Source: a bacterium HR16 (GTDB taxonomy: Bacteria; Armatimonadota; HRBIN16). Taken from it: a stretch of 57,084 nt of DNA. Positions 1,598 through 52,785 of the stretch are shown here, one piece after another (positions within the stretch are counted from its first letter, which is position 1; every line of letters starts with the position of its first letter). Below the pieces are notes generated by a model. That model searched no databases. It saw only the letters and a list, made by a program, of their open reading frames with translations, and was not told where the DNA came from. The stretch spans positions 1-57,084 of the forward strand of contig BEHS01000002.1 of NCBI GenBank assembly GCA_002898895.1, written 5' to 3'. A program made the translations under genes and the position numbers.

Positions 1598-1618
1598 TCG
1601 GCACGGGGGCGATGACAT

Positions 1619-1646
1619 GGAGGGTCACGCTCTGTGGTGACCCTCC
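1619..1646. repeat. Perfect 10-bp-stem hairpin (GGAGGGTCAC-N8-GTGACCCTCC). Probable terminator of the upstream minus-strand gene, and related to the GGAGGGTCGCGCTCCGTCGCGACC repeat class.
   Basis: The inverted repeat was read directly. It lies 25 nt downstream of the stop of the 1671-2585 ORF. Its sequence resembles the class-B units at 48796-48897. Confidence 0.5.
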
Positions 1647-11938: not shown

Positions 11939-11963
11939 CGGCTCGGCGGGAGCCTCGCTCTCC
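11939..11963. repeat. REP unit, class A (CGGCTCGGCGGGAGCCTCGCTCTCC)
   Basis: Matches the 25-mer that flanks the RAYT gene (2-3 mismatches). Intergenic, between divergent genes. Confidence 0.6.
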
Positions 11964-12084
11964 AGAACTCTTCTGCATGGGCAGGTTCTTTCCTGTTTGT
12001 CCGGCCTCCGAAATCTGCCGACAGGAGCTGCCGTGCATCGGCGCGAAATGAACTGAGAAAACATTATCGAAGGGAGTGCAACCG

Positions 12085-14868
12085 ATGAACTGGCAGGCGA
12101 AGTGGATATGGCATCCGGGCGAAGAGGCGCCGCGCAACTTCTTCTGGGCAGCACGAAAAAGCTTTGCCCTCCCCGCGCGCTTCGGGAAGGTTACCCTGAG
12201 TATTACCGCCGATTCCCGCTACTCGGTATGGGTCAACGGCAACTATATTGGGCACGGTCCCGTACGTGCGTTCCCACATCGCTGGCGGTATGATAGTTAC
12301 GATATCACCCCTCATGTCTGCTCTGGCGAGAACGTGGTAGCGGTGCTGGTACACCACTTTGGGCATTCCACCTTCCAGTATCTGGAGGCACGTGGTGGTC
12401 TGCTGGCGCAGGTGGAGTGCGATGGACAGGTGGTTGCTGCCACCGACCACACGTGGAGAGGTATCGAGCATCCCGCATACGAACGGCGAATGCCTCGCAT
12501 GGCGTGCCAGCAGGCATGGGCGGAGATGTACGATGCCCGTAAAGCACCTGCGCACTGGACTCTCGTCGGCTTCGACGACAGCGCATGGCAAAGCGCTGTC
12601 GTAGTCGGCGAGGTGGGGTGTGCGCCGTGGAAGGAGGTGCTTCCACGCGACATTCCCTTGCTCACGCAGGAGCCGATTCAGCCGGTACGCCTCATGCGGA
12701 TTCAGGCGGTGCGCCCGCCGAGACAGGTGTGGACGTTTGACCTCAAGCCCAACTTCCTGCCGGGCGACCTCACTGCCAACCCGCGCGGGTTCGTGGGGCT
12801 GGTGGCAACGGTGCTGGAGTGTTCCCGTCCGATACAGGTAAGCCTGCGCTCCATGTTCAACGGCTTCCGCGCGGTGCGCATCGACGGCACGGAGTATACG
12901 CCTCAGCAGGCGGCTGAGGGCATCGCACTCTCCTCAGGTGAGCACCTGCTGGTAGCGGATATCTCCGCCCGCTTCTATCACGAGTGGTTCTTCGGTTTCG
13001 TTTTTGACTACGACGAGGGCGAGATGCACCTGCGTTCCCCGCTTGGAGATGCTCAGGCTTATCCGTTCGTGAGTATCGGTCCGTTCCCCTCACAGGATGA
13101 TGCGGGATACCAGTCGGTGTGGCAAGCCACCTCGCTCAACCAGATTGCAAGCCATCCGGCGGTTCAACCCATCCGGTGGGAGCACACCGCCGCTGCGAAT
13201 GTGTTTGCGGATACGGTTCTCGCCAAACCGGTCTCTGCCGAGGCCAGGGTGGAGACGCCGGACGCCCTGCTCGCCGCCAACTCGAACGAGACGGTCATCC
13301 ATCCTGTGAGCGAAGGCGACGTGGAGCTGTTGATAGACTTCGGCAAGGAGCTGGTGGGTTTCTTCGAGATAGACCTGTGCGCTCCTGAGGGTACAGTAAT
13401 TGACCTGAACGCCTTCGAGTATATGGAAGACGGGCGCATTCAGTGGACGTATGGACTGCACAACACCTTCCGTTATATCGCGCGAGAGGGCTGGCAGAGC
13501 TGGCGTTCGGTGGTGCGGCGCGGTTTCCGCTACGCCACGCTCACCGTCCGTTTCCCGCAGGGGGCGAGGGAACCGGTACGCTTGCGCGGGCTGCGCTGTT
13601 ACCTGAACACCTACCCGTATGCGTATCAGGCGCAGTTCCACTGCAGTGATGCCCTGCTGAACGACATCTGGGAGATTTCGCGCCACACGGTGCGCCTGTG
13701 CAGTGAAGACACCTTCGTGGACTGCCCCTCGTATGAGCAGACTTTCTGGGTGGGAGACGCTCGCAACGAGAGCCTGTTCAGCTACACCGCTTTCGGAGAT
13801 GCGCGTCTGGCGCGGAGGTGTCTACTGCTGGCGGGCGAGTCGCTGTGGCGGTCGCCGCTGGTGGAGAGCCAGGTGCCCAGCGGCTGGGAAGATATTCTGA
13901 CCGCGTGGAGCCTGCTGTGGACGATTGCCTGCGAGGAGTACTACCGCTTCACCGGAGACCGCGCGTTTCTGGAAGAGGTGTATCCCGCTGTGCGCCAGCA
14001 GAATCAGAACATCCACGAGCGGTTCATCAACGGACAGGGGTTGCTGGAGATAGAAGCGTGGAATATGCTGGACTGGGCGCCGATGGACACTCCCCGAACG
14101 GGCGTGGTGGCGCACCAGAACATGTGGCTGGTGGAGGCGTGGCGACGCAGTGCAAAGATGGCGCGCATTCTGGGCAACGAGGCGGAGGCGGAGCTGTACT
14201 TGCGCTGGGCGGAGGAGCTGAAGCAGGCGATTAACGCGCATCTGTGGGACGAAGAGAAGCAGGCGTATATCGACTGCATCCATGCCGACGGTCGGCGCAG
14301 TACGGTTATCAGCCAGCAGACGCAGACGGTAGCCTACCTGTGCGACATCGTGCCCGACGAGAAGCGCGCGCTGTTCGAGCGGTACCTCACCGATGTGCCC
14401 GAAGGCTGGGTGCGAGTGGGTAGTCCCTTCATGATGGCGTTCACCATCGAGGCGCTGGAGAAGGCAGGCGATGTGGGGCGAATCCTGCAGCTGATACGTC
14501 GGTGGTGGGGCATGATGGTTGACGCGGGAGCCACATCCTGCTGGGAGACGTTCCCGGGCTATCTTGGTCAGGAGTGGCCCACACGCAGTCACTGCCACGC
14601 CTGGAGCGCGGCGCCGGCGTTCGCGTTGCCATCGTATGTTCTGGGGGTGCGCCCGCTGGAGCCCGGTTTCACGCGATTCGAGGTGCGTCCGTTCCTGGGC
14701 GACCTCGAGTGGGCGAAAGGAGTGGTGCCCACCCCGCACGGGGAGATAGTGGTATCCCTGCGCCGCGAGGGGGAAAGGATACGAGCACAGGTCATCGTGC
14801 CCCAGAATACGGTTGCGGTGATTGGTGGCAAGGAGTACGGCGCAGGGATGCACGAGATCACCATGTAG
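12085..14868 (+). CDS. GH78 alpha-L-rhamnosidase
   Basis: N-terminus MNWQAKWIWHPGEE; (alpha/alpha)6 catalytic-domain motifs FVDCPSYEQTFWVGDARNE and RSHCHAWSAAP. ATG 12085 sits 8 nt after GAAGGGAG; the track ORF starts at GTG 12076. Confidence 0.85.
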   Translation: MNWQAKWIWHPGEEAPRNFFWAARKSFALPARFGKVTLSITADSRYSVWVNGNYIGHGPVRAFPHRWRYDSYDITPHVCSGENVVAVLVHHFGHSTFQYLEARGGLLAQVECDGQVVAATDHTWRGIEHPAYERRMPRMACQQAWAEMYDARKAPAHWTLVGFDDSAWQSAVVVGEVGCAPWKEVLPRDIPLLTQEPIQPVRLMRIQAVRPPRQVWTFDLKPNFLPGDLTANPRGFVGLVATVLECSRPIQVSLRSMFNGFRAVRIDGTEYTPQQAAEGIALSSGEHLLVADISARFYHEWFFGFVFDYDEGEMHLRSPLGDAQAYPFVSIGPFPSQDDAGYQSVWQATSLNQIASHPAVQPIRWEHTAAANVFADTVLAKPVSAEARVETPDALLAANSNETVIHPVSEGDVELLIDFGKELVGFFEIDLCAPEGTVIDLNAFEYMEDGRIQWTYGLHNTFRYIAREGWQSWRSVVRRGFRYATLTVRFPQGAREPVRLRGLRCYLNTYPYAYQAQFHCSDALLNDIWEISRHTVRLCSEDTFVDCPSYEQTFWVGDARNESLFSYTAFGDARLARRCLLLAGESLWRSPLVESQVPSGWEDILTAWSLLWTIACEEYYRFTGDRAFLEEVYPAVRQQNQNIHERFINGQGLLEIEAWNMLDWAPMDTPRTGVVAHQNMWLVEAWRRSAKMARILGNEAEAELYLRWAEELKQAINAHLWDEEKQAYIDCIHADGRRSTVISQQTQTVAYLCDIVPDEKRALFERYLTDVPEGWVRVGSPFMMAFTIEALEKAGDVGRILQLIRRWWGMMVDAGATSCWETFPGYLGQEWPTRSHCHAWSAAPAFALPSYVLGVRPLEPGFTRFEVRPFLGDLEWAKGVVPTPHGEIVVSLRREGERIRAQVIVPQNTVAVIGGKEYGAGMHEITM

Positions 14869-14887
14869 CTATCACCTGACGAGCAGT

Positions 14888-14921
14888 GCCCCGGCAGAGC
14901 CGACATCCGGCTCACCGGGGC
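14888..14921 (+). terminator. Two-tier hairpin downstream of the rhamnosidase gene
   Basis: Outer stem GCCCCGG/CCGGGGC and inner stem GAGCCG/CGGCTC, 20 nt after the stop. There is no clear U-tract. Confidence 0.4.
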
Positions 14922-15000
14922 GTGACAAACCGGCGGGTGCAGAACGCAGGAATGCAGTGCTGCCCCATCGGGTGCGATACCATAACGGCGCTGCGCTTGG

Positions 15001-15079
15001 CTGTTTGTCGTTCCGAATCTCAGAGATGCTTCACTGCGTTACAGGAGCGCGAAACCTCCTTGCCTGCATCCAGATAATC
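15001..15079. repeat. MITE-like palindromic element, shorter/degenerate copy B
   Basis: CTGTTTGTCGTTCCGAATCTCAGAGATGCTTCAC...ATCCAGATAATC shares both ends and the core with copy A at 7531-7648. Confidence 0.45.
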
Positions 15080-15091
15080 GGTCCTGACGCT

Positions 15092-15334
15092 CTAAGAGAC
15101 GCGTCGCGGGTTGCGATTACGGGCGGGCTTGATAAAGCGAAAATGCGCAAGATAGACGGGCAATTCCCGCTCCGGGAATTGCTCGTAAAGCCAGTCAAGG
15201 AACTCAAGGCTGAAGGTTGGGTAGAGTTGCAGGCGTTCCTTGCTCACCGAATCCCGGGTCAGGATCTGCGCATTAGTGAAACCCGCATCTTTCGCTTCGC
15301 GGATCAGCCCTCTCTCCGAGAGGGCGCCCGCCAG
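15092..15334 (-). other. 80-codon in-frame continuation of the methyltransferase beyond the TGA (recoded C-terminus or decaying pseudogene tail)
   Basis: The same frame stays open to TAG 15094-15092. It encodes LAGALSERGLIREAKDAGFTNAQILTRDSVSKERLQLYPTFSLEFLDWLYEQFPERELPVYLAHFRFIKPA..., which resembles the normal C-terminal part of the family. Confidence 0.5.
15299..15331 (-). promoter_or_regulatory. Stem-loop immediately 3' of the in-frame UGA (bacterial SECIS candidate)
   Basis: In the mRNA: upper stem GCCCUCU (15325-15319) / AGAGGGC (15313-15307), apical loop CGGAG, and lower stem GCGG (15331-15328) / CCGC (15302-15299). The upper stem begins 9 nt after the UGA. Confidence 0.3.
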
Positions 15335-15919
15335 TCAGCCCGCGAAGGCGGCTTCGCTGTCGAGCACCGCGCGCGGCAGACGTCCGTTCACCACTGAATC
15401 GGCGAAGATCAGGCGTCCACCGGATTTCAACACGCGATAGAATTCGCGGAACACCTGCCCCTTTTCCGTCGAGAGGTTGATGACGCCGTTCGAGATGATC
15501 ACATCCACGCTTGCATCGTCGAGGGGGATTTGCTCCATTTTGCCTTCGCGGAACTCGACGTTGGTCATTCCGAGGATATGTTGATTCGCCCATGCCCGTG
15601 CGAGCATTTCCGGCGTCATGTCCAGCCCGATGGCGCGCCCCGTTGGTCCAACCTTTTTCGCCGCGATGAAGGTGTCAATGCCCGCGCCGCTACCGATGTC
15701 CAGCACAACTTCGCCGGGCTGCAAATCCGCGTAGCGGACCGGGTTGCCGAGCCCAAGTGCGTAGGCTGTGACCGATTCTGGCAACCACGCGATTTCGTCT
15801 GGGTTGTACAAGCTTTCCGCGACGCCTGTTCCTTGCGGGATGACGGCGCCATAGGATTCGCGCACGATGCGTGCTGCCTCGTCTGCGGAAAACCGAATGC
15901 TTTCAAACTCGTCGCTCAT
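15335..15919 (-). CDS. ArsM-like class I SAM-dependent methyltransferase, as delimited by the in-frame TGA at 15337-15335
   Basis: [35 protein letters not shown]...[30 protein letters not shown]...[10 protein letters not shown] is the arsenite-methyltransferase-type fold. ATG 15919 lies 7 nt after GGAG; the track start 15961 would overlap the upstream gene. Confidence 0.8.
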
Positions 15920-15957
15920 GGTGCATCTCCTTCTGTTGTCAGGCGCAAGACCTCCTC

Positions 15958-17370
15958 TCACGCCGGCTTGATGTTCTGGTTCATCCGGAAGAAGTTCGTC
16001 GGGTCGTACTTCTTCTTGAGCGCCACCAGCCGGTCGTAAGTCGTACCGTAGGCGAATGCGATACGGTCGGTCTCGTCTTGGGTGAGGAAATTGATGTACG
16101 CGCCGCTGCTGGCGAACGGCCGTGACTTGGCGAAAAATTCGCGCGCCCAGGCGATGCAGCGCTGATCCTCAGAAGCCGACTCCCAGCGACCATGCACGTT
16201 CAGCACGTAATTGGCGTCTCGGCTCGAGTATGCCGTCGCCTCGGGCGCTACGCGTCCCGCCTGGCCGCCGATCGTGCCGATGAAAATCTCGCACTGCGGC
16301 GACGGCAGCTTGCCGGCGTATTCGATGAGGGTGTCGATCGCGCCGTCGCCGAGCCGCGAGAAGTTGTGCGACTTCCAGTAGTTGCGCGCACCCGGCGTCA
16401 GGAGTGGATTGAAGGTTTGTTGCCAGGCGGTGTACGGCTGCACGCCGATGTGTTCGCCGAGCACCGTACCGAACCTGCGCAACGGCTCGATTAGCTTCTC
16501 GCCTTCGGTGGGTTGGCCCGCATAGAACAATATGAGTGCGACGATCTCTTTCCCGATGACGTTCTCGGGCAGGAAGGGCAGTGGAGGCGCCTTTCGCGCG
16601 ACCACCCAGACGTTGAGGTCGTCCGGCATCGTCTTGGTGAACCGGGCGAATTGCGTGAGCACGGACTTCGCTTGGTCGAACGGGAAGGCGATGAGCCCGC
16701 TCAGCACGTCCGGCCCTACAGGATGGAGTTGGAACTCGAATCTGGTCACGATACCGAAGTTCCCGCCGCCGCCACGCAGCCCCCAGAAGAGGTCGGCGTT
16801 TTCCGTTTCGCTGGCGTGTACCTTCCTGCCATCTGCCGTGACGACATCCGCCGAGAGCAGGTTGTCCACAGTCATGCCGTATTTCCGGCTCAGCCAGCCA
16901 AAGCCGCCACCGAGCGTCAGTCCGGCAACGCCCGTGGTCGAGTTGATGCCCAGCGGCGTGGCAAGCCCGTGTGCCTGCGTGGCCGCATCGACGTCGGCAA
17001 GGGTGCAGCCGGACTCGACGGACGCCCGGCGGGCGTTTGCGTCCACCTGGACGCCCTTCATCAGCGAGAGGTCGATCATCAGTCCATCATCGCAAACAGC
17101 GTTTCCCGCAATGTTGTGCCCGCCCCCTCGGATCGAGACCAGCAGGTTCTGCTCGCGCGCGAACTTGACGGCATGGATGACATCTTCTGATGACACACAA
17201 CGGGCGATTAGCGCGGGGCTGCGGTCGATCATGGCGTTCCAGACGGTTCGGGACTCCTCATAGCCGACGTCGCCAGGTAGGAGCACTGGTCCGCGGAGGC
17301 GCATCTTTAAACCGTCGAGGGTGTCCTGTTTCAGGTCGATCGCGCGACCTTCTGTCGTTTTCGCTTTCAT
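15958..17370 (-). CDS. FAD-linked oxidase of the VAO/BBE-like family
   Basis: 470 aa. FAD-binding PCMH motif VSIRGGGHNIAGN (His candidate for covalent flavin) and C-terminal BBE-type motif YINF...YDRLVALKKKYDPTNFFRMNQNIKP. Confidence 0.85.
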   Translation of the reverse strand: MKAKTTEGRAIDLKQDTLDGLKMRLRGPVLLPGDVGYEESRTVWNAMIDRSPALIARCVSSEDVIHAVKFAREQNLLVSIRGGGHNIAGNAVCDDGLMIDLSLMKGVQVDANARRASVESGCTLADVDAATQAHGLATPLGINSTTGVAGLTLGGGFGWLSRKYGMTVDNLLSADVVTADGRKVHASETENADLFWGLRGGGGNFGIVTRFEFQLHPVGPDVLSGLIAFPFDQAKSVLTQFARFTKTMPDDLNVWVVARKAPPLPFLPENVIGKEIVALILFYAGQPTEGEKLIEPLRRFGTVLGEHIGVQPYTAWQQTFNPLLTPGARNYWKSHNFSRLGDGAIDTLIEYAGKLPSPQCEIFIGTIGGQAGRVAPEATAYSSRDANYVLNVHGRWESASEDQRCIAWAREFFAKSRPFASSGAYINFLTQDETDRIAFAYGTTYDRLVALKKKYDPTNFFRMNQNIKPA

Positions 17371-17423
17371 AGCACGACCTCTCTTTGTTTTGGAGTTTGA
17401 AGAAACTCCCTAGACTAGCTAGT

Positions 17424-17452
17424 ATTCTACCATTCGTGAATTGAATTGTCAA
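17424..17452 (-). promoter_or_regulatory. Near-consensus sigma70 promoter for the oxidase-methyltransferase pair
   Basis: On the minus strand: TTGACA (17452-17447), a 17-nt spacer, then TAGAAT (17429-17424). This is followed by the 10-bp palindrome ACTAGCTAGT and the hairpin GGAGTTT-CTTC-AAACTCC before the RBS. Confidence 0.55.
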
Positions 17453-17677
17453 GCATTTTGCTTAACTATGCAGCAAAAATCTCTGCCTCCCTGCTTTAAC
17501 CTGTTACTGACGGAGGCGCTGGCAAGCGTACTCAGGCGAGGCAGGGGATATGTGGCTCTTTTGCCGAAATAGGTACGGCATAGCTGTCGGGCAGGAGCCT
17601 TGCTCTTCGGGAGAGGGGGATACAGTCGGCTCACCCGGGGATTCGCCTCTCAGGTGTGGCAGCGCGACAATCCTTCT

Positions 17678-17702
17678 GGAGGGCGAGGCTCCTGCCGAGC
17701 CG
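17678..17702 (+). repeat. REP unit, class A (left flank of RAYT)
   Basis: A 25-mer containing the hairpin GGCTC-CTGCC-GAGCC. An identical copy lies at 37178-37202. Confidence 0.7.
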
Positions 17703-17723
17703 ATTGAGAGGTGAAATGAAAAG

Positions 17724-18191
17724 GTGAGAAACCTGCCAGAAAGAAAACGTCCGGTTCATCGGGTGATTATCCTGCCCAATCGCCCAACTATCGTGTTCGT
17801 GACCGTCTGCACCCATAAACGTCTACGCTGTTTAGCCAGCGAACAGGCACATGCTCTGCTCAACGATGTCTGGCTAAAAGCAGACAGTTGGCAGGTTGGG
17901 CGATATGTGGTTATGCCTGACCATGTTCACCTGTTCGCAGCACCCACAGACCCCGATGTGGATTTAGAAAGGTGGGTCCGCTACTGGAAGTCGCTTTTTT
18001 CGCGTCCATATCAAAAGCAAATGCCAACTTTTCGTTGGCAGTCGGGATACTGGGACACAACGTTACGCTGGTTCGACAGTTACGACCAGAAATGGGAATA
18101 TGTGCGTTTGAATCCTGTGAGACACGGGTTGGTTCAAAACCCGCAGGATTGGCCCTATCAGGGCGAGTTGAATGTGCTGGCTTGGTTTTAA
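17724..18191 (+). CDS. REP-associated tyrosine transposase (RAYT; IS200/IS605 TnpA-like Y1 HUH enzyme)
   Basis: 155 aa. HUH motif VVMPDHVHLFAAP and catalytic Tyr region QKWEYVRLNPVRHGLVQNPQDWPY. No TnpB-type partner gene is present. Confidence 0.8.
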   Translation: MRNLPERKRPVHRVIILPNRPTIVFVTVCTHKRLRCLASEQAHALLNDVWLKADSWQVGRYVVMPDHVHLFAAPTDPDVDLERWVRYWKSLFSRPYQKQMPTFRWQSGYWDTTLRWFDSYDQKWEYVRLNPVRHGLVQNPQDWPYQGELNVLAWF

Positions 18192-18200
18192 ACAATATTT

Positions 18201-18225
18201 CGGCTCGGCGGGAGCCTCGCCCTCC
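18201..18225 (-). repeat. REP unit, class A (right flank of RAYT, inverted)
   Basis: CGGCTCGGCGGGAGCCTCGCCCTCC is the reverse complement of the left copy with 1 mismatch. Confidence 0.7.
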
Positions 18226-18270
18226 AGGTGGGAGATTGGGGTGTTTGGCTCGACGCCTGCCGGGTGAGGT

Positions 18271-21200
18271 ATGCTCAGGAGGTGTACTGTGAACTGTCTG
18301 GCTTGGGTGTTTATCATGATGGCTCTTTCAGTAACCGTATCTGCTGCCCCGACAATCGGTGTCCTGCGCGTCGAGGAACGGCAACCCGATGCGCTACAGC
18401 GTGCGATTCGTCAGGCGATACCGGAGGCGAAGGTTGTTCCGGTATCTGTAGAGCACTTCGCCAGCGGGCGCCTGCCGCAGGAAACGGCAATGCTGGTGGT
18501 TCCGGAGGCACATCGCCTGCCCGCTGTTATCGCCGAGCCGCTGCAGAAGTGGGTGCGCTCTCGAAAAGGGGTACTTTTCGTGAGCAACGAGCCGCCACTG
18601 GGCACATGGCTCTATCGCGCGGGCAAACGGTGGGTGGAGCGACAGGAAGCCCTGCACGCGCTCGCGTCCTGGCGTCCCCTGTGGCAGGAGCCTCCTGCCC
18701 CGCAAAGTGGATGGCGACGCAGCACCAACGCGCCCGAAATAGATACCTCGTGGTCGCTGGTGGACACCCCACACGGCAAAGGCTATCGTCTCCGCGTGCC
18801 CAGACTGACGAGCTGGTGCACTTACGACCTGCCCATCGAACAGCCCTTCCGCGAAGGCGAGACGCTGATGCGCTTCTGGGCGAAGGGCGATAAGAACACC
18901 CGCGCCCTCTCCATCGAGTGGCGCGAGCGCGACGGCTCGCGCTGGGTGGCAACCGTGCCTCTTTCCGAAGGGTGGAAGCAGGTTGCGCTGGAACCGGCGG
19001 ACTTCCGCTACTGGCCCGACAACCCGTCTAAAGGGCGTGGAGGTGCTGGCGACCGATTGAAACCGGAAAACGCTGTGGAGATCTCTATTGGGCTGGCGCA
19101 CAGCTTCGCCTCCTACCCGCCGAATACGCCTCTGGAAGCGGTCATCGCCGATGTGCAGATAGGCAAGACAGCCCAATCGCTGCCTACCCCGCCCAGGTTC
19201 GCGCTGGAAGGCATCGCTCCGTGGTATAAGTTCTATCAAGATGCGCAGGGACGCTGGTGCAGCGTGATGCGTCATCGTGGCGTGGGCATTGGTGGGGTGT
19301 CGCCCGGAAGGCGTATCGTCGTCCCTCTTGGCGAGCGGGCGTGCCTGTTCATAAGCGGTAAGGGGGAAACCGAAGGGAGCGCATGGGCGTGGCTTCCCAC
19401 CTTCGAGGCAAACGCTTCCCATCTCTCGGCGATTCTGCGCCCGATGCTGCGCGGTTGGCACCTGATGCGCGCAGGCACCACGCGGTTTGGCTTCTGGAAA
19501 GAGCAGAAGGTGCAATACGGCGCAGAGGTGGCGAATTGGCGAGACATACCTGTGACCCTGCGCCTCGTTGCCCGCCTTTCCTCAAAGGGCAAGCCAGAAG
19601 TGTCTCAGCAGATGTCGGTGCGCCTGCAGCCCGGCGAACGGCGTGGCGTTTCCTTCCCTGAGACCAACCTGCCAGAGGGCGAGTGGTATGTGCGGGTCAC
19701 TGCGATGGCAGCGGACGGCACGCACGACGAGCTGGAGCACTCCTTCCACGTCATCGACAAACCGGCGGCGATGCCCCTCATTCGCGTGCAGGATGGATAT
19801 TTCGTGCAGGGGGACAAACCGTTTTACGCGCACGGCATCAACTTCTGGCCGCTGTGGATAGCCGGTCAAGAGCCGGACGAATACTGGGGGCACTGGCTCG
19901 GTCCCGAACAGTACGACCCTGCGGAGGTGGAACGCGCCCTGCGCATCGCGAAGCAGGTGGGGTTTAACGTGCTGTCGATTCAGTACACGAGCCTCTCCCA
20001 CGCGTCGCAGCTGGTGGACTTTTTAGAACGAGCACGCCGTCACGGGATGACGGTGAACCTGTTCATCACCGCCGCGCATCCGTTTGGCTTCGATCCGCAG
20101 CTGTTACGCCAGCTGATAGAAGCGGCGCGCATCCCGCAGTGGGGTAACATCTTCGCGTACGACATCGCGTGGGAGCCGGCGTGGGGTACCCATGCCGAGC
20201 GCAAACGGTTTGACCCCGCATGGCGTGAATGGATTGTCGAGCAGTACGGCTCCATCGAGAACGCCGAACGCGACTGGGGCTACGCCTTGCCCCGTGAAGA
20301 GGGCGTACCTACTAACCCCACCGACGAGCAGATACTGAACGACGGCGAGTGGCGACGTATGGTAGCCGCTTACCGTCGCTTTCTGGACGACCACGTGAAC
20401 CGTGCCTACTGGCGTGTGGTGAAATTCATTCGCAGTCTGGACGGACGCCACCTCATCGGCGTACGCACGGGATACGGAGGAAACGGCAGTCCGTGGGCGG
20501 ATTATCGGATGCCGTACGACCTGCTGGCGGGTGCGCCGTTCCTGGATTTCGTCTCGCCGGAGGGGTATTCCCTTACCGAAAACTGGCAGAACTTCCGCGC
20601 CGGGGGCTTCATTACCGCCTACGCCCGCTGGGCAGGTAACGGCAAGCCCGTCTTCTGGGCGGAGTTCGGGGCGAGCATCTATCCCGACACCACCCCGGAA
20701 CGCATCGCCTACCAGCGCAGCGTGTACGAGTGGATGTACCGCATGGTGGAGGAATCGCGGGCGGACGGCAGCGCGGGCTGGTGGTTCCCGGGCGGCTACC
20801 GCACCACCGAGAACAGCGACTTCGGCATTATCCATCCCGACGGCACGCTCCGTCCGGCGGCGCGGGTGGCGCAGCAGTGGACAAATCGTCTGGCGCAGAT
20901 ACCTCTGCAAACCGATGACCGCGAGGTACACGTTATTACCTTTGACCGCGACCTGCATCCGCGAGGCTTCTCGCAGGTGTGGGCACGCCATCGCGACGAA
21001 TACCTGAAAGCGGTGGAGGCGGGTAAGCGAGTGGAGCTGCGCACGGAGGGTACAGGCACAACCAGCGAAAACGTGCCGCTGGTGGCGGTGGGCAACGTGC
21101 CCTGCAACGGCAGTAATCCACCAAAGTACCTGAACGCGCAAATCCTGCAGGTAGAGGCGATAGACGCGCAGGGCGGGGCAAGCGAGGTAGAATCCGAACA

Positions 21201-21465
21201 ACCCCTGCCGCCCGATACGCGCCTCCTGCGCGTGACGGTGATGAACACCGGCGAGGCAACGTGGGTTCCTGCCGGCAAACGGCGCGTGGAGCTGGCGACC
21301 TCATGGGGCGAGCGCAAGGTGGTGGAAAAGCCGGTCGCACGCTACGCGATAACGCTATTCGAGATTCCGTTCGTAGCGCATACCCAACCTGCGGCGATAC
21401 GCCTGCAGCTGGTAACCGAAGAGGGTAAAATCGTGCCCTTTGGCGAGCGACGCCTCTTGAAATAG
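18271..21465 (+). CDS. Large secreted protein with a clan GH-A (GH5-like) TIM-barrel glycosidase-like domain
   Basis: Signal peptide ...CLAWVFIMMALSVTVSAAP. An alternative GTG start at 18289 lies 7 nt after AGGAGG. Barrel motifs: KPFYAHGINFWP, VGFNVLSIQY, an acid/base-like strand NIFAYDIAWEP (WEP instead of NEP) and a nucleophile-like strand KPVFWAEFG. Confidence 0.65.
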   Translation: MLRRCTVNCLAWVFIMMALSVTVSAAPTIGVLRVEERQPDALQRAIRQAIPEAKVVPVSVEHFASGRLPQETAMLVVPEAHRLPAVIAEPLQKWVRSRKGVLFVSNEPPLGTWLYRAGKRWVERQEALHALASWRPLWQEPPAPQSGWRRSTNAPEIDTSWSLVDTPHGKGYRLRVPRLTSWCTYDLPIEQPFREGETLMRFWAKGDKNTRALSIEWRERDGSRWVATVPLSEGWKQVALEPADFRYWPDNPSKGRGGAGDRLKPENAVEISIGLAHSFASYPPNTPLEAVIADVQIGKTAQSLPTPPRFALEGIAPWYKFYQDAQGRWCSVMRHRGVGIGGVSPGRRIVVPLGERACLFISGKGETEGSAWAWLPTFEANASHLSAILRPMLRGWHLMRAGTTRFGFWKEQKVQYGAEVANWRDIPVTLRLVARLSSKGKPEVSQQMSVRLQPGERRGVSFPETNLPEGEWYVRVTAMAADGTHDELEHSFHVIDKPAAMPLIRVQDGYFVQGDKPFYAHGINFWPLWIAGQEPDEYWGHWLGPEQYDPAEVERALRIAKQVGFNVLSIQYTSLSHASQLVDFLERARRHGMTVNLFITAAHPFGFDPQLLRQLIEAARIPQWGNIFAYDIAWEPAWGTHAERKRFDPAWREWIVEQYGSIENAERDWGYALPREEGVPTNPTDEQILNDGEWRRMVAAYRRFLDDHVNRAYWRVVKFIRSLDGRHLIGVRTGYGGNGSPWADYRMPYDLLAGAPFLDFVSPEGYSLTENWQNFRAGGFITAYARWAGNGKPVFWAEFGASIYPDTTPERIAYQRSVYEWMYRMVEESRADGSAGWWFPGGYRTTENSDFGIIHPDGTLRPAARVAQQWTNRLAQIPLQTDDREVHVITFDRDLHPRGFSQVWARHRDEYLKAVEAGKRVELRTEGTGTTSENVPLVAVGNVPCNGSNPPKYLNAQILQVEAIDAQGGASEVESEQPLPPDTRLLRVTVMNTGEATWVPAGKRRVELATSWGERKVVEKPVARYAITLFEIPFVAHTQPAAIRLQLVTEEGKIVPFGERRLLK

Positions 21466-22130: not shown

Positions 22131-22145
22131 GGGGAAGGTGTCTTT

Positions 22146-22242
22146 ACGGCTAAAGCCGTTCCCTGTCGCATGAAGCCAGCCTGCACTGGCTGAGAACCCT
22201 GCGAAGGCAGGGTTTCGTTTGCAAGGGTGCGGCTTTAGCCGC
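22146..22242. repeat. Cluster of four short hairpins between convergent genes (repeat family C)
   Basis: ACGGCTAAAGCCGT; GCCAGCCTGCACTGGC; AACCCTGCGAAGGCAGGGTT; GCGGCTTTAGCCGC. The segment 22172-22207 recurs, inverted, at 48685-48722. Confidence 0.55.
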
Positions 22243-22252
22243 AAACGCCGGT

Positions 22253-35458: not shown

Positions 35459-35491
35459 TCATGGGGTAAGACCCCACACGTGCGGCTACCT

Positions 35492-35539
35492 GGAGGGCGA
35501 GGCTTAGAGGTGTTCGGCTCATCGGAAGGTTCGCCCTCC
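35492..35539. repeat. REP-derived hairpin between convergent genes
   Basis: GGAGGGCGAGGCT...AGGTTCGCCCTCC. The arms match the class A REP ends, and it probably works as a bidirectional terminator. Confidence 0.5.
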
Positions 35540-35553
35540 AGGTTGCCGATTGG

Positions 35554-36732: not shown

Positions 36733-37155
36733 ATGATTTCGCAAACAGCAGAGTATGCCCTCAGAGCGATGGTTTATCTGGCGCAGTACCCGGAGCAGGC
36801 GCACACCAACCAGCAGATTGCGCGGGTGACTCGGGTGCCAACGGGCTATTTGGCGAAAGTGCTGCAGAACCTGAGCCGGGCTGGCTTGATCACCTCGCGC
36901 CGAGGGCTGGGCGGGGGATTTGCACTGGCAAAGCCTGCAAACGAGATTACCATCTATGAGGTGGTTCAGGCGGTAGACCCCATTCCGCGTATCACTACAT
37001 GTCCGCTGAAGCTAAAAGCGCACAAGGACAAATTATGCCCGTTGCACCAACGGCTGGACAATGCGTGGGAACAGGTGGAGCAGTCTTTTCGCAGCACTAC
37101 CCTCAGCGATATTATCGACGAAGCGGGCGAGGAGGGCGTGCTGTGCGAGGAGTAG
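36733..37155 (+). CDS. Rrf2-family transcriptional regulator (NsrR/IscR-like, three Cys)
   Basis: MISQTAEYALRAMVYLAQYPEQAHTNQQIARVTRVPTGYLAKVLQNLSRAGLITSRRGLGGGFALAK, with the cluster-ligand spacing C-x13-C in ..TTCPLKLKAHKDKLCPLH... Confidence 0.85.
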   Translation: MISQTAEYALRAMVYLAQYPEQAHTNQQIARVTRVPTGYLAKVLQNLSRAGLITSRRGLGGGFALAKPANEITIYEVVQAVDPIPRITTCPLKLKAHKDKLCPLHQRLDNAWEQVEQSFRSTTLSDIIDEAGEEGVLCEE

Positions 37156-37177
37156 GGTAGAATCTGCGCCATCCGGT

Positions 37178-37202
37178 GGAGGGCGAGGCTCCTGCCGAGC
37201 CG
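37178..37202 (+). repeat. REP unit, class A
   Basis: Identical to the 25-mer at 17678-17702. Confidence 0.7.
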
Positions 37203-37216
37203 TTAGCCCCCCTGTC

Positions 37217-37304
37217 GTCCCCCCGCAAGCAGGGGGACATGACGCTCCTCCCCGCGTGCGGGGAGGTTGGGTGGGGCGAATCGACTCACCGTCGGGTTCG
37301 CCCC
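37217..37304. repeat. Three consecutive G/C-rich hairpins (family D-like) between convergent genes
   Basis: GTCCCCC-N8-GGGGGAC (37217-37238), CCTCCCC-GCGTGC-GGGGAGG (37247-37266) and GGGGCGAA-N16-TTCGCCCC (37273-37304). Confidence 0.5.
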
Positions 37305-37317
37305 TCGGGTCAACAGG

Positions 37318-47927: not shown

Positions 47928-48179
47928 TGGCTGCCACCTCTTCTACCCCGGGCAACGCCCCGGGTGCGTGTGAGGAATCCTTCCACACTTGGACGGGTGG
48001 ACAGGACGACCCTCATGCTGAATTATCGTGAAACTGGTAAAAAAACTGGAGAGCAGAGGAGAATATTGCATGATATTGCGGTATTGGTGGGGTGTCAGGC
48101 GTTTATCTCAGCATCGTCACTCTGGATGGCGAACCTCCGGGTAAGCCGGTTTAGCCCTTCAGACGCTTGTCTTGGACGC

Positions 48180-48192
48180 TGTGGTATAATCT
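48180..48192 (+). promoter_or_regulatory. Extended -10 promoter element upstream of hicB
   Basis: TGTGGTATAATCT, with TATAAT at 48185-48190, ending 17 nt before ATG 48210. Confidence 0.4.
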
Positions 48193-48209
48193 TCACGGGT
48201 GAATCTCCT

Positions 48210-48452
48210 ATGTTAACACGATACATTCAAAAAGCGATGGAACAGGCTCATTACGAACTATTGCCAGAAGATAAGCTGTACTACGGCGAGATTCCGGGCT
48301 TCGATGGAGTTTGGGCGACGGGAACAACGTTAGAGGCATGTCGTAATGAGCTGCAGGAAGTACTGGAGGAATGGATTCTGCTAAGGGTTGCTCGCCACCT
48401 GCCTCTTCCTTTTGTGGGAGACATTCGTTTACAGTTGTCTGAGGTCAGTTAA
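48210..48452 (+). CDS. hicB: HicB-family antitoxin (short, UPF0150-like domain only)
   Basis: MLTRYIQKAMEQAHYELLPEDKLYYGEIPGFDGVWATGTTLEACRNELQEVLEEWILL.... The stop overlaps the next ATG (TAATG). Confidence 0.7.
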   Translation: MLTRYIQKAMEQAHYELLPEDKLYYGEIPGFDGVWATGTTLEACRNELQEVLEEWILLRVARHLPLPFVGDIRLQLSEVS

Positions 48453-48666
48453 TGCCGCGTTTCGATGCCACCAGCCGAAATGACCTGATCCACTACTTGC
48501 GCCGATTGGGGTTCGACGGACCGTTTTCAGGCGGCAAACACCAGTTCATGCAACGGGGCGGGCGTACGGTGCGTTTACCCAATCCAAAGGTGACATCAGC
48601 GCAGGTCTGCTTTCTCGAATACTGAAGCAAGCAGGTATCACCCGGCAAGAGTGGGAAGAGTTATAG
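48452..48666 (+). pseudogene. hicA: HicA-family toxin gene interrupted by a frameshift
   Basis: From ATG 48452: MPRFDATSRNDLIHYLRRLGFDGPFSGGKHQFMQRGGRTVRLPNP, then out-of-family residues and TGA at 48625. Shifting one nucleotide after PNP restores KGDISAGLLSRILKQAGITRQEWEEL, with a stop at 48666. Confidence 0.6.
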
Positions 48667-48684
48667 GGATTGCTCCTTCGTCCA

Positions 48685-48722
48685 CCTTCGCAGGGTTACT
48701 GTAGCCAGCGCAGGCTGGCTTC
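48685..48722. repeat. Family C repeat copy (inverted relative to 22172-22207)
   Basis: The reverse complement GAAGCCAGCCTGCGCTGGCTACAGTAACCCTGCGAAGG aligns with GAAGCCAGCCTGCACTGGCTGAGAACCCTGCGAAGG. Confidence 0.55.
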
Positions 48723-48757
48723 GTTTGTAGGGGAACGGCTAGACACCATATCCAACT

Positions 48758-48933
48758 CGGCTCGGACGGAGCCTCGCCCTCCACGCAATTGGATTGGAGG
48801 GTCGCGCTCCGTCGCGACCACCACATTCAGGATGCGACAGAGCGCATTCCTCCAAGCAAACACCAGTCCCACTGGAGGGTCGCACTCCGTCGCCACCGAA
48901 AACCTAACCGGCTCAGGCGGAGCCGCGCCCTCC
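48758..48933. repeat. Composite REP cluster (BIME-like): A(-) B(+) B(-) B(+) A(-)
   Basis: Class A units at 48758-48782 and 48909-48933. Class B units (GGAGGGTCGCGCTCCGTCGCGACC and variants, hairpin GTCGCG/CGCGAC) at 48796-48819, 48830-48853 (inverted) and 48874-48897. Confidence 0.65.
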
Positions 48934-48946
48934 AGTGCTGGATTCG

Positions 48947-49765
48947 CTAGCTCATCACGCGCATATCGATCACCGCCGTTAAGCCCACGCCGTTTACACG
49001 ACGCAGCTTCAGCGGGTTGAGGTCGTCGGTGGGGATGAGGATCTTCACGCGGAACATGCCGTTGGAGAAGAGGTCCTCATACTGCCACACGCCGGCCACC
49101 TTGTTCACATCGGCAGAAGCTCCCGAAATTTGTGCCCCGCCGATGTAGGCGTTTTCGCCCAGCGTCGCCATTGGGATAACCTTCGTGAACTCCTCGGCGT
49201 TCTTGCGCAGGCTCAGCTTGTTAATCAGCTCGTTCAGCTGGTTGCCTGCGTTCTTGACCGCGACCGCCACCGCCGCGGCAGCGATGACCTCCTTGCCCCC
49301 CAGCCCCTTCGGGTGGGTGACCTTGAAGCCGCCCTCTAACGCCACGTCAATCAGCGCGGAGATACCCACCTTCTCCACGCGGCGCAAGCCAGTCAGGCTG
49401 TCACTGGGAACCAGTACCTTGATGCGGAACCGGTCCAGCGACTCCTCAAGCTGAAACACCGCCTGCACCTTGTTCACCGCCGCTTTCGGACCCATCACCT
49501 GTGCCGCGCCGACATAGCCCTTGTCGCCAATGCTGAGTATCGGCACCACCTTCGTCGCCTGGTTCACCGGCACGTTGTGGCGGATGGTGATTTCGTTGAT
49601 GAACTTATCCAGCGCTTTAGCGTTCTGCTTGACCAGGTAGCCAATACCCACCAGCTTCAGTCCGCCTCGCAGGATCTTGCCCAGGTCCTGTGCGCTGCTC
49701 CACTCCGACAGGTTGACGGTCAGTAAGAAGACCATCGCTGTCACGAGTACCAGTACGCGTTTCAT
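48947..49765 (-). CDS. Secreted protein of unknown function built from two tandem ~115-aa repeats
   Basis: Signal peptide MKRVLVLVTAMVFLLTVNLSEWSSAQ. Repeat motifs align as TKVVPILSIGDKGYVGAAQV..VNKV..FRIKVLVPSD..LRRVEKVGISALIDV versus TKVIPMATLGENAYIGGAQI..VNKV..FRVKILIPTD..LRRVNGVGLTAVIDM. Confidence 0.7.
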   Translation of the reverse strand: MKRVLVLVTAMVFLLTVNLSEWSSAQDLGKILRGGLKLVGIGYLVKQNAKALDKFINEITIRHNVPVNQATKVVPILSIGDKGYVGAAQVMGPKAAVNKVQAVFQLEESLDRFRIKVLVPSDSLTGLRRVEKVGISALIDVALEGGFKVTHPKGLGGKEVIAAAAVAVAVKNAGNQLNELINKLSLRKNAEEFTKVIPMATLGENAYIGGAQISGASADVNKVAGVWQYEDLFSNGMFRVKILIPTDDLNPLKLRRVNGVGLTAVIDMRVMS

Positions 49766-51945: not shown

Positions 51946-52785
51946 TTATCCCTTCTTCTTTGCCACCCAGAGGGTATACAGCTCCCTTCTGGATATGCCA
52001 CTGCGCTTTGCCGCTTCCTTCAGTGCCTCCTTCTCGGTCATGCCTTGCGCCATCAGCTCTGCAACCGTCTGTAGCGGGTCTTCTGCGGGAGGCATCGGTT
52101 CCTCCTGCCGGGGGAGCAGAACCAGTGTGAACTCGCCGCGAGGAGGCACCTGCTCGAAGTGTGCCAGCCATTCGGTGACCTTTGCCGAACGCGCCTCCTC
52201 GAACTGCTTGGTCAGCTCGCGGGCGATGAACAGCTCGCGGTCGCCCAGCACTTCCAGCACATCCTTCAGCAGGTCGCGCAGGCGATGGGGCGCCTCGAAC
52301 CACACCACTGCCCTGTGCTCACCCGCCAGCGAGTGCAGGTACACACGTCGCTCCTTCGCCTTACGTGGGGGGAAGCCGTCGAACACAAACCGTCCTTCAG
52401 GCAGACCCGCGAGGCTCACCGCCGCCGTCACTGCGGATGCGCCGGGCACACACACCACCGGGTACCCTTCCTCACGCGCGCGGCGAATCAATACACTGCC
52501 CGGGTCGCTGAGCGTGGGCGTGCCCGCATCGGTTACCAGCGCGATGCTCTCGCCCGCGTGCAATCGCTGTAGCAGTTGCTCGATTTTGGCAGGAGGCGAG
52601 TATTCATGCAGGCTGGTGAGCGGTGTGTGGATGTCGTAATGGCTCAGCAGTTTTCGCGTCACGCGGGTGTCCTCCGCTGCGATGAGGTTCACTCCCCGCA
52701 GAACGCGCAAAGCACGCAGAGTAATGTCCTCCAGGTTGCCGATAGGCGTTGCCACCACGTACAGCACGCCTGCGGTGTCTACCAC
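51946..52785 (-). CDS. rsmI: 16S rRNA (cytidine1402-2'-O)-methyltransferase
   Basis: LYVVATPIGNLEDITLRALRVLRGVNLIAAEDTRVTRKLL.... Confidence 0.88.
   Translation of the reverse strand: MVDTAGVLYVVATPIGNLEDITLRALRVLRGVNLIAAEDTRVTRKLLSHYDIHTPLTSLHEYSPPAKIEQLLQRLHAGESIALVTDAGTPTLSDPGSVLIRRAREEGYPVVCVPGASAVTAAVSLAGLPEGRFVFDGFPPRKAKERRVYLHSLAGEHRAVVWFEAPHRLRDLLKDVLEVLGDRELFIARELTKQFEEARSAKVTEWLAHFEQVPPRGEFTLVLLPRQEEPMPPAEDPLQTVAELMAQGMTEKEALKEAAKRSGISRRELYTLWVAKKKG

Follow-up and report, generated by a model that had tools for sequence, protein, structure and literature searches.

A gene at 17724–18191 in a 57,084-nt stretch of contig BEHS01000002.1 from bacterium HR16 (hereafter the window) encodes a predicted tyrosine transposase associated with repetitive extragenic palindromes (REPs), and it is bracketed by inverted copies of one such REP. 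We consider it very probable (about 0.85) that this locus is a 'REPtron', i.e., a class 2 HUH/Y1 single-stranded DNA nuclease-transposase (a REP-associated tyrosine transposase, RAYT or TnpA-REP) situated between inverted copies of its cognate REP and accompanied by a population of REPs and REP doublets (REPINs), in an Armatimonadota genome. An earlier note on this DNA, made from the letters alone, had taken the gene content to point away from Proteobacteria, and the Armatimonadota lineage of the window agrees with this. The unit comprises three features.

17724–18191, forward strand: RAYT (TnpA-REP) gene with a GTG start, encoding 155 aa, assigned from a family model, a PDB profile and the predicted fold.
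17677–17702, forward strand: upstream REP of type A1, with a T-GGAG foot, the stem GGCGAGG/CCGAGCC containing a tandem G·A mismatch, and the loop CTCCTG.
18201–18226, reverse strand: downstream REP of type A1 in the opposite orientation, such that the two feet face outward, with a single mismatch, in the loop.

The 155-aa open reading frame (ORF) had been described as having the HUH motif (MPDHVHLF) and catalytic Tyr helix of IS200-like Y1 transposases, and its coordinates and motifs were verified. The HUH motif reads DHVH (residues 66–69, within MPDHVHLF), WQ is present, the Y-motif is YVRLNP (residues 126–131) and the catalytic Tyr helix reads WEYVRLNPVRHGLV. H67, H69, W105, W110, D111, R115, Y126, N130 and P131 were invariant across 30 RAYT homologues, and Q106 was nearly so. 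The protein thus combines HUH with a Tyr in the context Y-x3-NP, which is the signature of class 2 (TnpA-REP), as opposed to Y-x3-Q in class 1 (PMC6006769), and its gene is bracketed by REPs that also sit dispersed between genes, as in other RAYT systems. The NCBIfam equivalog model for REP-associated tyrosine transposases (NF047646, REP_Tyr_transpos) scored 92.4 bits against a cut-off of 80, whereas the IS200 equivalog NF033573 failed with only 30.1 bits (cut-off 55); the match to Pfam Y1_Tnp was modest (31.9 bits, cut-off 23). A PDB sequence search with a profile of 30 homologues retrieved E. coli TnpA-REP (4ER8) at E = 1.5e-13 and ISDra2 TnpA at E = 0.03. The AlphaFold2 model (predicted local distance difference test score, 91.4) also found its best Foldseek match in 4ER8_A (template modelling (TM) score 0.71, root mean square deviation 2.9 Å), compared with a TM score of ~0.54 for IS200/IS608/ISDra2 TnpA. 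Sequence and predicted fold agree and support the assignment of the gene as a RAYT rather than an IS200 TnpA, as had been proposed. For annotation purposes this is routine, and a current pipeline would already call the gene a REP-associated tyrosine transposase.

The repeat GGAGGGCGAGGCTCCTGCCGAGCCG at 17678–17702 (+) recurs as its reverse complement, with 1 mismatch, at 18201–18225, leaving gaps of 21 nt upstream and 9 nt downstream of the gene exactly as the earlier note had placed them, and the inverted match reaches 28 nt (17676–17703 versus 18200–18227, 96%). Each REP is 24–26 nt long and consists of a 5' GGAG foot, a 7-bp stem and a pyrimidine-rich loop (CTCCNN in type A); the type A1 stem is GGC-GA-GG / CC-GA-GCC, in which the central GA steps form the tandem G·A mismatch.

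The association of such hairpins with the enzyme extends well beyond this locus. RAYT relatives were fetched with their flanks (80 metagenome loci, 2 loci from long contigs and 4 with taxon labels), and a strict hairpin detector was run on the flanks of 83 RAYT loci (61.3 kb). It returned 297 GGAG-footed hairpins, whose constant foot is not independent evidence because the detector required GGAGG, compared with 2.0 in shuffles (maximum 6). Their density was 4.84 per kb adjoining the RAYT versus 0.078 per kb beyond 600 nt, a 62-fold difference, and at least one hairpin was present at 80 of the 83 loci, with hairpins on both sides at 70. A common design was evident in these flanks: a GGAG foot, a stem that always opens with GG and closes with CC, and a pyrimidine-rich loop of 5–6 nt, most often CTCCGT. 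As many as 73 distinct stems occurred with pairing kept, including fully Watson–Crick stems (178 copies) and tandem G·A stems (80 copies; at positions 4–5 in 48 and 5–6 in 32). Independent evidence for the foot came from direct reading of the flanks, none of which contained a GTAG or GTGG foot, and from 228 REP copies in at least 120 stretches of other genomes. In the latter, the conserved unit was Y-G-GGAGGGCGAGGCTCC-Y-GCCGAGCC-G between random flanks, the base preceding the searched 24-mer being G in 92% and the base before that C or T in 84%.

In an alignment of 95 distinct related REPs, the 7-bp register was paired in 94% of cells, a value that is partly circular because the REPs for the pair counts were chosen by a hairpin rule in the same register, and 174 two-sided changes were counted versus 48 in shuffles. 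Neither the diversity of stems nor the enrichment beside the RAYT is affected by this circularity. Among copies with G·A stems, the neighbouring pairs co-varied (GG/CC, GC/GC, GT/AC, GA/TC, AC/GT, AG/CT). The hairpin previously read in each copy, GGCTC-N5-GAGCC, is indeed present in the sequence but was rejected as a conserved structure: its register paired in 47.8% of cells across the 95 REPs, which is the shuffle level, as against 94% for the 7-bp register, and it was the minimum-energy fold of the complementary strand only. As independent support, the minimum-energy DNA fold of the foot-bearing strand was GGC..GGC....GCC..GCC, i.e., the 7-bp register with a 2 × 2 GA/GA internal loop, whereas the complementary strand gave the GGCTC/GAGCC hairpin instead of this register. 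Such asymmetry between the two strands suggests that the foot-bearing strand may be the substrate, by analogy with IS200/IS605. Pairing of the GGAG foot with the loop CTCC as a mimic of guide and target was also considered and dropped, as the loop reads otherwise in many relatives (e.g., CGCTGT, GTGTC or CTTCTG).

Of the pairs of neighbouring REPs near RAYTs, 126 were oppositely oriented and 21 had like orientation, in line with inverted doublets, and two sub-types often alternated. Type A1 of the window (GGCGAGG/CCGAGCC) pairs with a type A2 (GGCGAAC/GTGAGCC), as at 37177–37308, in the collapsed doublet at 35490–35541 and at two further loci (L129 and L057). The stem type was common to groups of closely related RAYTs. 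The window RAYT was 50–62% identical to RAYTs flanked by type A (mean 55.0%) and on average 51.2% identical to the others. In two homologues (P0007 and P0015), the gene calls begin inside the upstream REP, giving the false N-terminal extension (V/L)EGEAPAEP; translated REPs probably contaminate many predicted proteins of Planctomycetota and Armatimonadota.

Within the window, the repeats form a dispersed population, listed below apart from the bracket.

1618–1642, forward strand: dispersed REP of type B' (GGTCACG stem), between convergent genes.
11939–11964, reverse strand: dispersed REP of type A1 with the foot GGAGAG, in a divergent intergenic region; matches the 25-mer with 2 mismatches at 11939–11963.
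17584–17654, reverse strand: two decayed REPs 5' of the intact upstream REP, namely an A1-like copy at 17584–17609 (weak, with 8/26 mismatches) and an A2-like copy at 17627–17654 (called by eye against other A2 copies).
35490–35541, no single strand: REP doublet with an internal deletion, comprising a truncated A1 (+) at 35490–35504 and an A2 (−) at 35515–35541, between convergent genes.
37177–37308, forward strand: REPIN-like doublet, comprising an intact A1 (+) at 37177–37202, a 79-nt spacer and a decayed A2 (−) at 37282–37308.
48123–48148, forward strand: decayed A2-type REP, with 7/26 mismatches to A1.
48758–48934, alternating strands: cluster of five REPs, comprising A1 (−) at 48758–48783, B (+) at 48795–48819, C-like (−) at 48830–48853, B (+) at 48873–48897 and an A variant (−) at 48909–48934.

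With up to 3 mismatches, the 25-mer had 5 matches in the window compared with 0.00 in 100 dinucleotide-preserving shuffles. The copy at 37178–37202 (+) is identical to the upstream bracket copy, that at 48758–48782 (−) has 2 mismatches, and that at 48909–48933 (−) is, like the doublet at 35490–35541, a looser yet genuine relative. Every intergenic position that the earlier note had listed for variants of the 25-mer was recovered, and all lie between genes. Types B and C (1618–1642, 48795–48819, 48830–48853 and 48873–48897) and the decayed copies at 17584–17609 and 17627–17654 are additions to that list. The second type, TGGAGGGTCGCGCTCCGTCGCGACC, occurs at 48795, at 48873 and as a variant at 1618, and a third type at 48830; all REP types of the window share the head TGGAGGG. 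In total, at least 11 related REP copies occupy 7 sites including the bracket, at least 9 of them at 6 other intergenic sites. The suspected intergenic bias was evident, as a greedy ORF model leaves 11.5% of the window uncovered and 11/11 window REPs fall there.

The positions of the repeats and of the RAYT differ between related genomes. The window PilB shares 97% identity with a protein from an Armatimonadota metagenome-assembled genome (MAG), and the nearest assemblies include MAGs from hot springs (SKYG40 and others). The REP-bearing gap at 37151–37299 corresponds to 29 nt without a REP in a relative, and that at 48053–48949 is 895 nt long in the window versus 66 nt without a REP in the relative L212 (both at ~81–83% nucleotide identity). 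The REP at 11939 is retained at the orthologous site of the relative L235 (87% identity). The RAYT locus itself is part of a larger segment that differs between genomes.

14857–18246, no single strand: 3.39-kb segment containing a 208-aa ORF, a BBE-type flavin adenine dinucleotide (FAD) oxidase and, at its right edge, REP-RAYT-REP.
15335–15961, reverse strand: 208-aa ORF, within the segment missing from L235 and L236.
15958–17370, reverse strand: BBE-type FAD oxidase, within the segment missing from L235 and L236.

This segment sits between a rhamnosidase gene and a gene for a 1064-aa protein, and it is absent at the same site in L235 and L236 (87% and ~81% nucleotide identity, respectively). 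The site is ~25 nt long in L235, and in L236 it is occupied by a ~140-nt A1-spacer-A2 doublet, which aligns end to end, spacer included, with the doublet at 37177–37308, a non-orthologous locus in the window. The occurrence of the same doublet at different loci suggests that doublet and spacer behave as a unit. Inverted REP pairs with a spacer, as expected of REPINs, were thus found at 37177–37308 and 35490–35541, and we infer their movement from the differing sites. The spacer of the former has a hairpin of its own at 37248–37265; it is conserved between genomes (window 37203–37265 and L236 3890–3950) and holds two G/C-rich hairpins, CCCCCCTG...CAGGGGG and CTCCCCGCGTGCGGGGAG.

By analogy with E. 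coli TnpA-REP and IS608 TnpA, the RAYT would bind the foot and hairpin of one REP strand while this is single-stranded, e.g., at a replication fork, and would then cut and rejoin beside the hairpin. Such cutting and rejoining could copy or move REP doublets (A1(+), spacer, A2(−)) into intergenic DNA, while the RAYT gene itself would remain single-copy. Because only copies that the enzyme still recognises would be propagated, the master REP sequence would be held constant.

Several points weigh against this interpretation. We infer REP binding, cleavage, strand choice and mobilisation by the RAYT from analogy with known enzymes, and the pairing frequency is partly circular, as stated above. Canonical REPs are defined by a 5' GT[AG]G foot (PMC2817692; PMC6006769), whereas the foot here is GGAG; given that the E. 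coli protein contacts the foot directly, recognition may differ in detail. Furthermore, the RAYT tree is poorly resolved with weakly supported deep branches, and the window RAYT grouped with RAYTs flanked by exact type A, to the exclusion of a type B/C paralogue, in 122/200 bootstraps. An attempt to tie stem type to enzyme clade through a resolved phylogeny failed, although groups of close relatives share stems, and the co-diversification of enzyme and stem is suggestive only.

Copies of the type A REP were widespread in other genomes. A scan with the 24-mer, using one genome per species and leaving two loop positions and one foot position free, matched at least 120 stretches; among the 120 matches listed, bins with the exact type A 24-mer carried the labels of about ten phyla, mostly Planctomycetota. 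The labels comprised 93 Planctomycetota (all major orders), ~9 Armatimonadota, 4 other members of the Planctomycetes–Verrucomicrobia–Chlamydiae group (Verrucomicrobia, Kiritimatiellae, Victivallales), 2 Acidobacteriota, 1 each of Nitrospirales, Ignavibacteria, Binatia and Thermodesulfobacteriota, 3 Proteobacteria and 5 unlabelled bins. Single matches in MAGs may reflect binning errors, but the main pattern is robust. No RAYT gene was found in these 120 listed stretches (832 kb), which fits dispersal without the gene, yet cannot link the REP to the enzyme. RAYTs with taxon labels confirmed the pairing: one labelled Isosphaeraceae was flanked by exact type A, those labelled Planctomycetota and 'Deltaproteobacteria' by close variants, and one from Fimbriimonadia by other stems. 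The exact type A 24-mer was also carried by 16 IMG/VR contigs classed as viral (L215–L230), one of which (L222) has two inverted doublets.

The earlier note had remarked that this arrangement is described mainly in Proteobacteria. The window is indeed non-proteobacterial, but systems elsewhere are on record, so the lineage alone is unsurprising: tagged REPs are known from 8 phyla including Planctomycetes and Verrucomicrobia (PMC3733652), and TnpA-REP subclasses from Cyanobacteria, Bacteroidetes and others (PMC6006769). We hold only tentatively, at a little less than even odds, that a large undescribed superfamily of GGAG-footed REPs and RAYTs is predominant in Planctomycetota and Armatimonadota and extends to bins that carry the labels of about ten phyla, with one master REP with a G·A stem kept 24/24 while the enzymes diverged to 50–62% identity. 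If so, either the partnership between REPs and RAYTs is far older and wider than the picture centred on Proteobacteria, or REP-RAYT-REP cassettes cross phyla and re-seed the same repeat each time.

The alternative that survives best is one that we consider unlikely. The REP-RAYT-REP unit, alone or with neighbouring genes, might be a recently arrived horizontal cassette rather than a long-resident 'domesticated' gene, each arrival seeding a new REP population and explaining the presence of one 24-mer in many phyla. The spread over bins of about ten phyla among the listed matches, the exact or nearly identical repeats beside RAYTs labelled Isosphaeraceae, Planctomycetota and Deltaproteobacteria, and the copies on IMG/VR contigs are in line with such transfer, but the RAYTs that share the REP are only 50–62% identical to that of the window, implying that any transfers are old, and no RAYT homologue at E ≤ 1e-10 was found among 72,556 plasmids. 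Base composition points both ways. The window RAYT has a GC content of 50.9% and a GC content at third codon positions (GC3) of 0.545, compared with a GC3 of 0.74–0.80 in host genes, and its GC deficit is 9 points. Over 63 related loci, however, the GC content of the RAYT tracked that of the host (r = 0.78) at a deficit of just ~4 points (56/63 negative, Wilcoxon p = 1e-10), which argues for long residence in general. The 9-point deficit and the missing segment make a more recent arrival conceivable in the window itself. The absence of the 3.39-kb segment from two relatives, one of which has a REP doublet at the site, could equally reflect deletion, as REPtron loss has been reported in E. coli strains (PMC3733652), and the adjacent BBE-type oxidase has a host-like GC3 of 0.80, indicating that the segment is not simply a foreign island. 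The description of the RAYT as 'domesticated' in the earlier note was not borne out, given the absence of the segment in two relatives and the GC3 of 0.55 versus 0.74–0.80.

It is very unlikely that the repeats instead serve the host in regulation or structure, e.g., as terminators, mRNA stabilisers or sites bound by proteins, and are kept by host selection, with the adjacency to a transposase being incidental. Most window REPs do lie downstream of genes or between convergent genes, such roles have been credited to REPs of other bacteria (PMC3733652), and the sequence conservation across phyla is extreme. Against this, the hairpins are 62 times denser adjoining RAYTs than 600 nt away across 83 independent loci, the stem type is common to related RAYTs, the copies are found in either orientation and also form inverted doublets, their sites are not conserved between related genomes, and no Rfam family matched anywhere in the window. 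A secondary host role of the REPs is compatible with the REPtron interpretation. Least likely, and largely refuted, is an ordinary autonomous IS200-family insertion sequence with tnpA only and the flanking repeats as its ends: the match to Pfam Y1_Tnp above its cut-off, the hairpin-forming repeats bracketing the gene at 21 and 9 nt and the absence of the unit at the same site in relatives would fit it, but the IS200 equivalog failed, the Y-motif is of class 2, no IS200/IS608 TnpA comes as near in fold as 4ER8, the hairpins on the two sides of the gene are inverted rather than direct, the repeats far outnumber the gene and occur without it, and the gene occurs once in the 57-kb window with no tnpB there, in line with the lack of a TnpB partner stated in the earlier note.

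Returning to the REPtron interpretation, the closest characterised counterpart of the enzyme is E. coli TnpA-REP (RayT/YafM; 4ER8; subclass 2.2 of Quentin et al., Group 2 of Bertels), which shares HUH with a single Tyr, Y-x3-NP, and WQ and R near the foot-binding region, is the best match in sequence and fold, and likewise has its gene between inverted REPs. The repeats resemble E. coli REPs and bacterial interspersed mosaic elements in occurring as intergenic singles, as doublets of two sub-types (Y/Z2 in E. coli, A1/A2 here) and as clusters. In contrast, the proteins are only ~25% identical, the host phylum here is Armatimonadota, and the E. coli REP has a GTAG foot and a long bulged stem, as opposed to the GGAG foot and 7-bp tandem-G·A stem found here. 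In the foot-contact region, E100-H101 of the E. coli protein is replaced by D-T in the window RAYT, and in relatives the D precedes T, R, K, V or Y; judging from the alignment, this change may underlie the GGAG preference.

Among known subclasses, the motifs fit best with subclass 2.7 of Quentin et al. (PMC6006769; e.g., Desulfobacca acetoxidans and Desulfomonile tiedjei), which has [ND]HVH, WQ and YI[LR][NQ]NP compared with DHVH, WQ and YVR(N/L)NP here; the fit is near rather than full, with V for I and with the [NQ] position occupied by L in the window but by N in most relatives. REPs of this subclass also combine a 4-nt foot with a 7–9 bp stem and a (C)TCC-type loop, as in GTAGGACCGACCTCCAGGTCGGTCC, but their foot is GT[AG]G (GTAG in the supplement of Quentin et al.) and not GGAG. 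The description of subclass 2.7 was based on 36 proteins, mostly from Cyanobacteria, whose median length is 213 aa versus ~155 aa here, and the likeness is one of motifs and REP build. Class 3 TnpA-Y1 of Quentin et al. (Planctomycetes and Acidobacteria; CnGA foot) was considered and rejected, as its motifs NHVH / YV..EQ do not fit.

Similarly, the REPIN-RAYT systems of Pseudomonas and Neisseria (Bertels and Rainey; Groups 2 and 3) share inverted REP doublets with a conserved spacer, one RAYT per REP family with several RAYT/REP pairs possible per genome, and intergenic insertions that differ between relatives. Those systems, however, are described as inherited vertically within genera and have lineage-specific REPINs, whereas here one 24-mer occurs in bins labelled as many phyla and synteny at the RAYT locus is lacking in the nearest relatives available. 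TnpA proteins of IS200/IS605 (IS608, ISDra2) have the HUH/Y1 fold in common with the window RAYT and recognise a hairpin and an adjacent short guide on one strand, but they are dimeric, carry Y-x3-Q and belong to multi-copy elements with direct subterminal hairpins, often with tnpB; in Y-motif, model score, fold, copy number in the window and hairpin orientation, the window RAYT departs from them.

The GGAG foot is a difference of sequence specificity, not of architecture. REP super-families tagged GTAG and CGTC have been distinguished, and the degenerate feet GYAG, GYRG, GTRG, GTMG and GTGG, but not GGAG, are listed there (Di Nocera et al., PMC3733652). A literature search with the REP motif string, in either orientation, found no paper, although REPs of R. 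baltica and O. terrae are presented in figures of PMC3733652 and a prior description there cannot be fully excluded; the search likewise found no paper linking REPs to Armatimonadota, Chthonomonas, Gemmata or Planctomycetota. What had gone unreported is the foot GGAG, the stem with its G·A mismatch and the fact that a single REP is nearly identical in many phyla; these set the system apart from known ones in specificity and distribution, not in mechanism.

This GGAG-footed class, which abounds in Planctomycetota, Armatimonadota and further phyla that have been little studied, would be missed by the textbook GT[AG]G definition and by search tools built on it, and its REPs probably break assemblies and cause false N-terminal extensions (EGEAPAEP) in gene calls. 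The comparative set of 73 compensating stems with a fixed foot and a fixed loop bears on DNA recognition by RAYTs, and one site can be compared as empty, REPIN-filled and RAYT-filled in related genomes. Should the tentative superfamily hold, the swap from GTAG to GGAG together with that from E100-H101 to D-T/R would be a natural experiment in guide reading by HUH/Y1 enzymes. These findings are useful to specialists in REPIN-RAYT systems and HUH enzymes and are otherwise ordinary.

A second RAYT encoded elsewhere in the genome is the most likely partner of window types B and C (stems GGTCGCG, GGTCACG and GGATGCG). A RAYT from GCA_025061855.1 (P0110), 53% identical to that of the window, is flanked by GGTCACG and GGACGCG REPs, which correspond to window types B' and C, and the same assembly includes a locus (L213) whose PilB is 95% identical to that of the window. 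REPs of types A, B and C also occur together at loci from SKYG40 and SKYG83. The presence of several RAYTs per genome, each serving its own REP types, has been described as the rule in Pseudomonas and Stenotrophomonas (PMC6006769).

A separate repeat, a 35-nt imperfect inverted repeat (TTTACGGCTAAAGCCGTTCCCTGTCGCATGAAGCC ... GGTTTCGTTTGCAAGGGTGCGGCTTTAGCCGCAAA), was observed at 22143–22245, with a third copy containing GTAGGGGAACGGCT at 48703–48740, just left of the REP cluster; it may represent a separate hairpin repeat family with a GTAG-like foot. Next to the 3.39-kb segment, the 1064-aa protein (18271–21465, forward strand) has no Pfam match, shows 67–100% identity in ~14 contigs of Armatimonadota type and always adjoins the rhamnosidase and a DUF6259/NPCBM protein. 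Its distant homologues (~38% identity) carry PF02449 (Glyco_hydro_42), suggesting that it is probably an uncharacterised glycoside hydrolase. A 677-aa ORF at 52779–54812 on the reverse strand matched no Pfam family at E ≤ 1e-5.

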